The notes under the pieces: generated by a model
Seen by the model: only the letters and a program-made list of their open reading frames with translations
What the model was told of the DNA's origin: nothing
Databases searched by the model: none
Made by a program: the position numbers and the translations under genes
Assembly: GCA_000165345.1 (NCBI GenBank)
Contig: CM000429.1
Location: 320,001-384,000, forward strand
DNA length: 64,000 nucleotides
Reading direction: 5' to 3'
Part shown: piece by piece, positions 9,808-10,490 of the stretch
Position numbering within the stretch: the stretch's first letter is position 1
Layout of the letters: every line of letters starts with the position of its first letter

Positions 9808-10490
9808 CTAAAACTGAAATTGCAAATTGAGTTTGGTATTAATATCAAGATGGGCAACCATTTCACAAAATTCTTCATAAGAAATGAGCCCATCTCCGTC
9901 TTTATCTGCTTGAATTATGCACCTATCAACCAATTGTTGAAGCTAAAATAAAAATTAGATTAATTTGTTTCAGTGAAATTTAAGTTAAAATACTCTGAGA
10001 GTAATAATGGCATTATTCCAAAACTTACTTGTAAATCCTCCAAATTATCTCCAACCATTATTTTCATAACCTTAAAAAGCTCCCCATTTGAAATCCAGCC
10101 ATCACTATTCACATCATAGATATCAAAAGCAAACTTCATCTTCTCTTCCGGATTACTCCCAACAGCTAACCTTGCAAGACCTATAATGAATTCAACAAAT
10201 GATACTTTACCGTCCTTATTAGTGTCAAAAATAGAAATCACACGCTTGACTAATGGATTATCTGCAATTTCTGGCATTTCGAAAAGCTCGTGTGGGTCAA
10301 GCTCCCCATTTTGATTAGTATCTAGTGCCTTGAATCTAGAGTATATACGAATAATATCTCTTCTGGTAAAGCTCGCAGCGTGTACTAGCTCAAGCTTTTC
10401 CTGCTCTGAAATACCACTTGATTCATTTCTAAGCATTAGTTTGGCGATTAATTTCGTGCAAAAAGACTAATAGAAGAGAGCTTACCCCAT
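9808..10490 (-). CDS. CNB1: Calcineurin B (protein phosphatase 2B regulatory subunit), 3 exons
   Basis: Exons on the minus strand are 10486..10490 (ATGGG), 10029..10428 and 9808..9942. Introns are 10429..10485 (57 nt, GTAAGC...CTAATGCTTAG) and 9943..10028 (86 nt, CAA|GTAAGT...ATCTAATTTTTATTTTAG). The spliced protein begins MGNESSG, which is the N-myristoylation Gly (compare human MGNEAS). It has four EF hands ([36 protein letters not shown]). The track ORF diverged after DNLEDLQ into junk, which is what revealed the 3' intron. Exon 3 restores [33 protein letters not shown], which matches human [29 protein letters not shown]. Confidence 0.85.
9943..10028 (-). other. Spliceosomal intron 2 of calcineurin B (86 nt)
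   Basis: The donor CAA|GTAAGT is a perfect consensus. The branch site ATCTAAT lies about 15 nt upstream of the acceptor TTTTATTTTAG|CTT. Homology is restored after splicing. Confidence 0.8.
10429..10485 (-). other. Spliceosomal intron 1 of calcineurin B (57 nt; follows a 5-nt first exon)
   Basis: ATGGG|GTAAGCTC...ACTAATGCTTAG|AAATGAATCA. Splicing creates the Gly2 codon GGA. Confidence 0.75.

Follow-up and report, generated by a model that had tools for sequence, protein, structure and literature searches.

The calcineurin B of human cells carries a myristoylated N-terminus of the MGNE(A/S)S type. In Plasmodium and Toxoplasma, calcineurin is known to have essential functions in attachment and invasion (PMC8949495). 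The calcineurin B of P. falciparum has been studied by conditional knock-down (Paul et al. 2015, as cited in PMC8949495 and PMC7448269), and the catalytic PP2B subunit of C. parvum is listed as CpPP2B (cgd6_4200) in the supplement of PMC8949495. In a literature search we found no experimental work on the myristoylation, catalytic-subunit binding or function of Cryptosporidium calcineurin B.

The PP2B regulatory subunit of Plasmodium (protein cluster P0053) begins with MGN and contains four EF-hands. Its gene opens with a coding exon that consists of ATGGG, has an intron after nucleotide 405 of the coding sequence (CDS) and is interrupted by three more introns after CDS nucleotides 174, 259 and 486. 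The C. parvum locus described in this report codes for a protein that is 62% identical to the Plasmodium subunit, and shares with it the ATGGG exon and the intron after nucleotide 405. It differs in the absence of the other three introns and in intron length, with the Plasmodium introns being longer (93–632 nt). We estimate a probability of about 93% that this locus is the single-copy calcineurin B gene of C. parvum, encoded on the minus strand with two GT–AG introns at old positions, and that its product is an MGN-starting protein of 179 residues with four EF-hands.

Results and Discussion

The window that we analyzed is a 64,000-nucleotide stretch of C. parvum DNA. A preliminary description of this window had proposed a calcineurin B gene with two introns, and all coordinates and sequences of this model were found again when we read the minus strand and assembled the exons. 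The coding part of exon 1 (10490..10486, minus strand) comprises five nucleotides, ATGGG, made up of the initiating ATG and the leading GG of the Gly2 codon. Intron 1 (10485..10429, minus strand, 57 nt) is a phase 2 intron with a GTAAGC donor and a TTAG acceptor (GTAAGC…ACTAATGCTTAG; also written GTAAGCTC…CCAAACTAATGCTTAG). A branch-point-like ACTAAT motif is located 6 nt upstream of this acceptor. Exon 2 (10428..10029, minus strand, 400 nt) extends from the third base of the Gly2 codon to Gln135 and encodes EF-hands 1–3. Intron 2 (10028..9943, minus strand, 86 nt) is a phase 0 intron with a G+C content of 22%, a GTAAGT donor and a polypyrimidine tract followed by a TAG acceptor (GTAAGT…TTTTATTTTAG; also written GTAAGTTT…TCTAATTTTTATTTTAG). 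Exon 3 (9942..9808, minus strand, 135 nt) codes for Leu136 to Phe179, including EF-hand 4, and ends with a TAG stop codon. The spliced CDS of 540 nt is in frame throughout, giving a protein of 179 residues (MGNESSG…LNLQFQF) that begins with MGNESSGISEQEK.

Judging from their GTAAG-like donors, their AG acceptors and the presence of either a branch-point-like CTAAT motif or a polypyrimidine tract, both introns fit the canonical U2-type GT–AG class. Their sizes and G+C contents agree with the genome-wide means of 84–99 nt and 22% G+C (PMC4637869). Without splicing, the first ATG reads ATG-GGG-TAA (MG*), and read-through of intron 2 leads to an in-frame stop after 22 codons. The mechanical list of open reading frames (ORFs) contains, as had been noticed before, a truncated ORF of 158 residues (9960..10436) that begins with MLRNESSG and turns to junk past DLQ. 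The same list contains an orphan C-terminal ORF at 9808..9933. Counting both strands, the 64-kb window contains the motif ATGGGGTAWG a single time, exactly at the boundary of exon 1 and intron 1, with 0.15 occurrences expected by chance; this match is more than chance.

Between the calcineurin B ATG and the stop codon of the upstream DHHC gene (10735) there are at most 244 nt, which sets the bounds for the 5′ UTR. The five nucleotides of ATGGG are only the coding part of exon 1, since the transcribed exon also includes the 5′ UTR. The earlier notion of a 5-nt first exon is correct for the coding part, but not for the exon itself. Because exon 1 includes the 5′ UTR, this structure does not confront the spliceosome with a 5-nt exon or micro-exon; the problem is one for gene finders.

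The gene directly upstream of calcineurin B encodes a DHHC palmitoyltransferase (10735..11775, minus strand). The placement of a palmitoyltransferase directly upstream of a predicted myristoylated protein is probably coincidental. On the other side, calcineurin B is followed by a gene for a ZGRF1-like_N protein (8652..9224, minus strand) and then by an ABC transporter gene on the other strand. The order DHHC, calcineurin B, ZGRF1-like_N and ABC transporter extends unchanged from C. parvum to C. andersoni, a gastric species (loci L001, L002, L003 and L008). For the ZGRF1-like_N protein, the ORF tool chose a TTG start (190 residues), and the length of the GenBank protein, 181 residues, agrees with a start at the first ATG (MKKQFEVLY…). 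The TTG start is an artefact of applying a bacterial start-codon rule to a eukaryotic genome, and calls for caution with other ORFs in the window that begin with TTG or GTG.

With an exact-sequence look-up, we could establish that the 179-residue product is already present in GenBank as QOY43490.1 / WRK30530.1 from C. parvum. The segment 8808..11490 of the window is identical to CP044422.1 (GCA_015245375.1, 920,510 bp) at 2683 of 2683 nucleotides, and the gene on CP044422.1 covers the same span of 683 nt (window 10490..9808). This gene is printed as CPATCC_000281 (C. parvum IOWA-ATCC). The deposited model does not differ from ours in any aspect of its structure. The difference is in the naming: instead of calcineurin B, the record gives just "EF-hand domain containing" or "hypothetical protein". 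According to Baptista et al. 2022 (PMC8744675), every gene of this annotation went through manual curation and RNA-seq supports 100% of its introns, which is a general statement and not specific to this gene. C. meleagridis, C. canis, C. ubiquitum and the chipmunk genotype are likewise represented by deposited models with an MGN start. The junction of exon 1 and exon 2 (GAAATGGGAAATGAATCAAGTGG) had no match in JGI metagenome and metatranscriptome contigs, a collection in which Cryptosporidium transcripts are unlikely, so that this result is uninformative. The gene model is correct, but it is not new, since the exact model and its product are already in GenBank. The split start is neither unannotated nor peculiar to the C. 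parvum genome; the layout occurs across the phylum and is ordinary.

To compare the gene structure between species, orthologous loci were fetched and each protein was mapped onto its own DNA with an exact splice mapper. By this approach, the 5-nt coding exon ATGGG|GT was also found in C. hominis, C. ryanae, C. xiaoi and C. andersoni, in Plasmodium, Hammondia hammondi, Cyclospora cayetanensis and Gregarina niphandrodes, and in the chromerid Vitrella brassicaformis. The donors that follow ATGGG in these nine species are GTAAG, GTATG, GTAAA or GTGAG. Eight of the nine also have the phase 0 intron that follows CDS nucleotide 405 (…Q|LQQLV…); only Gregarina niphandrodes lacks it. The extra introns that relatives carry after CDS nucleotides 174, 259 and 486 are all absent from Cryptosporidium, which fits the loss of introns in this genus that is described in PMC8744675.

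Within Cryptosporidium, exon 2 is exactly 400 nt long in all five species, and the introns vary in length (intron 1: 57, 57, 126, 116 and 69 nt; intron 2: 86, 86, 88, 102 and 85 nt). Exon 2 of C. hominis is 97% identical to that of C. parvum. In the three more distant species, identity to C. parvum amounts to 75–80% in exon 2 and 69–72% in exon 3, as compared to 38–55% in intron 1 and 55–63% in intron 2. This comparison between species provides independent support for both introns. The gene model, the assignment to calcineurin B and the restored MGN N-terminus and C-terminus are borne out by the deposited model of QOY43490.1, by the general RNA-seq statement of the annotators (PMC8744675), by the conservation of both intron positions and by transcript-derived orthologues that start with MGN.

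The dinoflagellate-lineage parasite Amoebophrya has introns that are non-canonical. In a tblastn search, its first coding exon turned out to be a long one that runs without interruption from ATGGGCAAC…, with no intron after ATGGG. Hence, this intron is not shared by all Myzozoa. Our literature search found no paper that describes the conservation of an ATGGG-splitting intron or of a start-codon mini-exon in calcineurin B genes. One could speculate that this intron is unusually durable and was kept from the chromerid–apicomplexan ancestor through the near-total loss of introns in Cryptosporidium, perhaps because splicing at this site is functionally required, for example for the level of expression, or because its retention in the mRNA would turn off or re-route the myristoylated N-terminus. 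We consider this idea to be unlikely.

Several deposited models begin at a different ATG (10436..10434), which is located within intron 1, three codons upstream of exon 2 and in the exon 2 frame. If intron 1 were kept, translation from this codon would produce a protein of 180 residues (MLRNESSG…) without a myristoylatable glycine. This ATG is found three codons before exon 2 in both C. parvum and C. hominis, and the deposited records WKS76037.1, KAL5370377.1, TRY53212.1 and CUV04080.1 make use of it. Nevertheless, we regard this start as highly improbable. In C. xiaoi and C. andersoni, the stretch from the upstream stop to exon 2 lacks any in-frame ATG, so that a full-length protein, with its start upstream of EF-hand 1, can come only from the spliced ATGGG. 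In C. ryanae the nearest in-frame ATG would add an unrelated extension of 20 residues. Furthermore, the sequence ATGGG|GTAAG or ATGGG|GTATG is conserved and the remainder of the intron is not, transcript-derived orthologues have the MGN N-terminus, an unspliced mRNA would present the upstream ATG-GGG-TAA mini-ORF first, and the curated annotation, with RNA-seq support as reported in PMC8744675, splices intron 1. It is also conceivable that the C. parvum / C. hominis lineage makes both forms, with regulated retention of intron 1 determining whether a myristoylated MGN protein or a non-lipidated MLRN protein is produced. The in-frame intronic ATG in C. parvum and C. hominis would serve such a switch, the models from C. 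tyzzeri and C. sp. 43IA8 also start with MLRN, and intron 1 did survive the massive intron loss in this genus that is reported in PMC8744675. This scenario is nonetheless very unlikely, because the intronic ATG is not conserved in other Cryptosporidium species, because the upstream ATGGGGTAA mini-ORF would impede initiation, and because the overlap of the ATG with the branch-point-like ACTAAT|G would account for the ATG even if it coded for nothing. In addition, Baptista et al. (PMC8744675) mention three putative alternatively spliced genes, and neither of the two whose identifiers were consulted is recognizably calcineurin B.

In a search of the PDB, calcineurin B chains were the best hits of the 179-residue product, at E = 1e-52 to 1e-46 (1MF8_B, 1AUI_B and others at about 1e-52), with all calcineurin B chains between 1e-52 and 1e-40 and the fungal structures between 1e-49 and 1e-40. 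Alternatively, the gene might encode not a phosphatase subunit but a different EF-hand protein that is myristoylated, for instance a CHP/p22-like or CBL-like sensor. CHP1, CHP2 and p22 are myristoylated EF-hand proteins of similar length that give full-length matches (E = 1e-25 to 1e-30; calmodulin: 1e-19), and many records name the protein only "EF-hand domain containing protein". However, calcineurin B chains match better by 20 orders of magnitude, and the CHPs contain an insertion, such that their alignment covers 193 residues as compared to 177. The full-length identity of 62% and the common exon structure with the Plasmodium PP2B regulatory subunit also argue against such a sensor, as do some records of the 90%-identity cluster and the C. 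andersoni orthologue, which are named calcineurin subunit B. We conclude that a CHP- or CBL-like identity is extremely improbable. The intronic start, regulated retention and the CHP-like identity were rejected or rated low on these grounds.

The assignment of the gene as calcineurin B, the regulatory Ca2+-binding subunit of PP2B in C. parvum, is supported by further features of the predicted protein. Four canonical Ca2+-binding EF-hand loops of 12 residues are found at residues 38, 70, 107 and 148, and EF-hand families are the only Pfam matches (EF-hand_7/1/6/5). Outside Cryptosporidium, the best homologues in the databases carry the name PP2B regulatory subunit or calcineurin B, and identity to apicomplexan proteins with these names is 62–72%. 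Human calcineurin B type 1 (PPP3R1; 1AUI_B, 1MF8_B) matches over the full length and has four EF-hands as well; both proteins contain the sequence LQQ(I/L)VDK/R…DKDGDG…EEF. The alignment crosses the intron 2 junction without a gap, and the exon 3 segment LQQLVDR…DKDGDG…EEF aligns with the human protein. The donor at 10023..10028 and the acceptor at 9943..9944 restore the C-terminus, as had been suggested. The C. parvum protein differs from its human counterpart by about nine additional residues before EF-hand 1 and by its C-terminal tail. The spliced product starts with MGNESS and contains an N-myristoylation motif, consisting of the Met-Gly start and a Ser/Thr at position 6. In G-N-E-S-S the serine occupies the favoured fifth position counted from glycine. 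The MGN start is conserved in orthologues, including those from gregarine transcriptomes.

Combining these observations, we propose that the single-copy locus is transcribed from the minus strand to a pre-mRNA that would contain two short canonical GT–AG introns. The first of these would follow the fifth coding nucleotide (ATGGG|…|A), so that the start codon and two bases of the Gly2 codon would share exon 1 with the 5′ UTR. Splicing would give the protein of 179 residues with four EF-hands and the N-terminus Met-Gly-Asn-Glu-Ser-Ser. From this motif we predict that the initiator methionine is removed and that Gly2 is myristoylated by the parasite N-myristoyltransferase (NMT) to give the peptide (myr-)GNESSGISEQEK. 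By analogy with other eukaryotes, the protein would bind the catalytic subunit (listed as cgd6_4200) and confer Ca2+ dependence on the phosphatase. Both intron positions probably go back to the ancestor that apicomplexans share with chromerids; Cryptosporidium would have retained them, and the other three positions, occupied in its relatives, would have been lost.

The expectation that automated annotation easily misses the mini-exon holds for several deposited models. At least nine public records from six apicomplexan species contain a wrong calcineurin B N-terminus. In XP_627979.1 from C. parvum Iowa II (189 residues, partial) intron 1 is read through. An MLRN start is found in KAL5370377.1 (C. 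parvum), WKS76037.1 (C. sp. 43IA8) and TRY53212.1 (C. tyzzeri), an MFRN start in CUV04080.1, KAL3129839.1 and PPA63974.1 (C. hominis), and PPS97140.1 (C. hominis, 127 residues) starts at Met53. The models at the mapped loci of C. ryanae (FG386_001221, L003 1429-2185, 198 residues), Gregarina niphandrodes (P0051, L006 1770-2481, 241 residues) and C. hominis (L008 1447-2129, 180 residues, wrong N-terminus) are affected too, and that of Cyclospora cayetanensis (P0033, L012 2501-3782, 201 residues) has the correct mini-exon and a wrong acceptor. On the minus strand of C. parvum the spurious start overlaps the branch-point-like ACTAAT of intron 1 in the sequence ACTAATG (10434..10440). This overlap, together with the reading frame of the ATG, is a plausible reason why gene finders were fooled in the C. 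parvum/hominis/tyzzeri group. Remodelling of the C. ryanae, Cyclospora, Gregarina and C. hominis genes with ATGGG|GT afforded clean MGN… proteins of 177–180 residues. For Gregarina niphandrodes, the implied first intron is only 37 nt long. The wrong records could be corrected by way of the conserved ATGGG|GT signature.

A cluster from the Logan assemblies, P0016 (158 residues, nine member sequences, four contigs), matches with 98% identity and 75% coverage. Its length, identity and coverage suggest that this cluster represents ORF 9960..10436 without splicing. Should this be the case, eukaryotic contigs that are annotated with prokaryote-style gene calling introduce truncated versions with false C-termini into large protein collections.

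Whether calcineurin B is listed among the predicted substrates of N-myristoyltransferase depends on the correct N-terminus. In Cryptosporidium, work is under way on NMT as a drug target (PMC10580320). Surveys based on the MG motif have reported low conservation of myristoylation-substrate orthologues in Cryptosporidium (PMC7373427). Proteins with MLRN, MFRN or longer false N-termini would escape such surveys. The value of the corrected models lies in curation and in lists of predicted myristoylation; biologically, calcineurin B is an ordinary and expected part of apicomplexan Ca2+ signalling.
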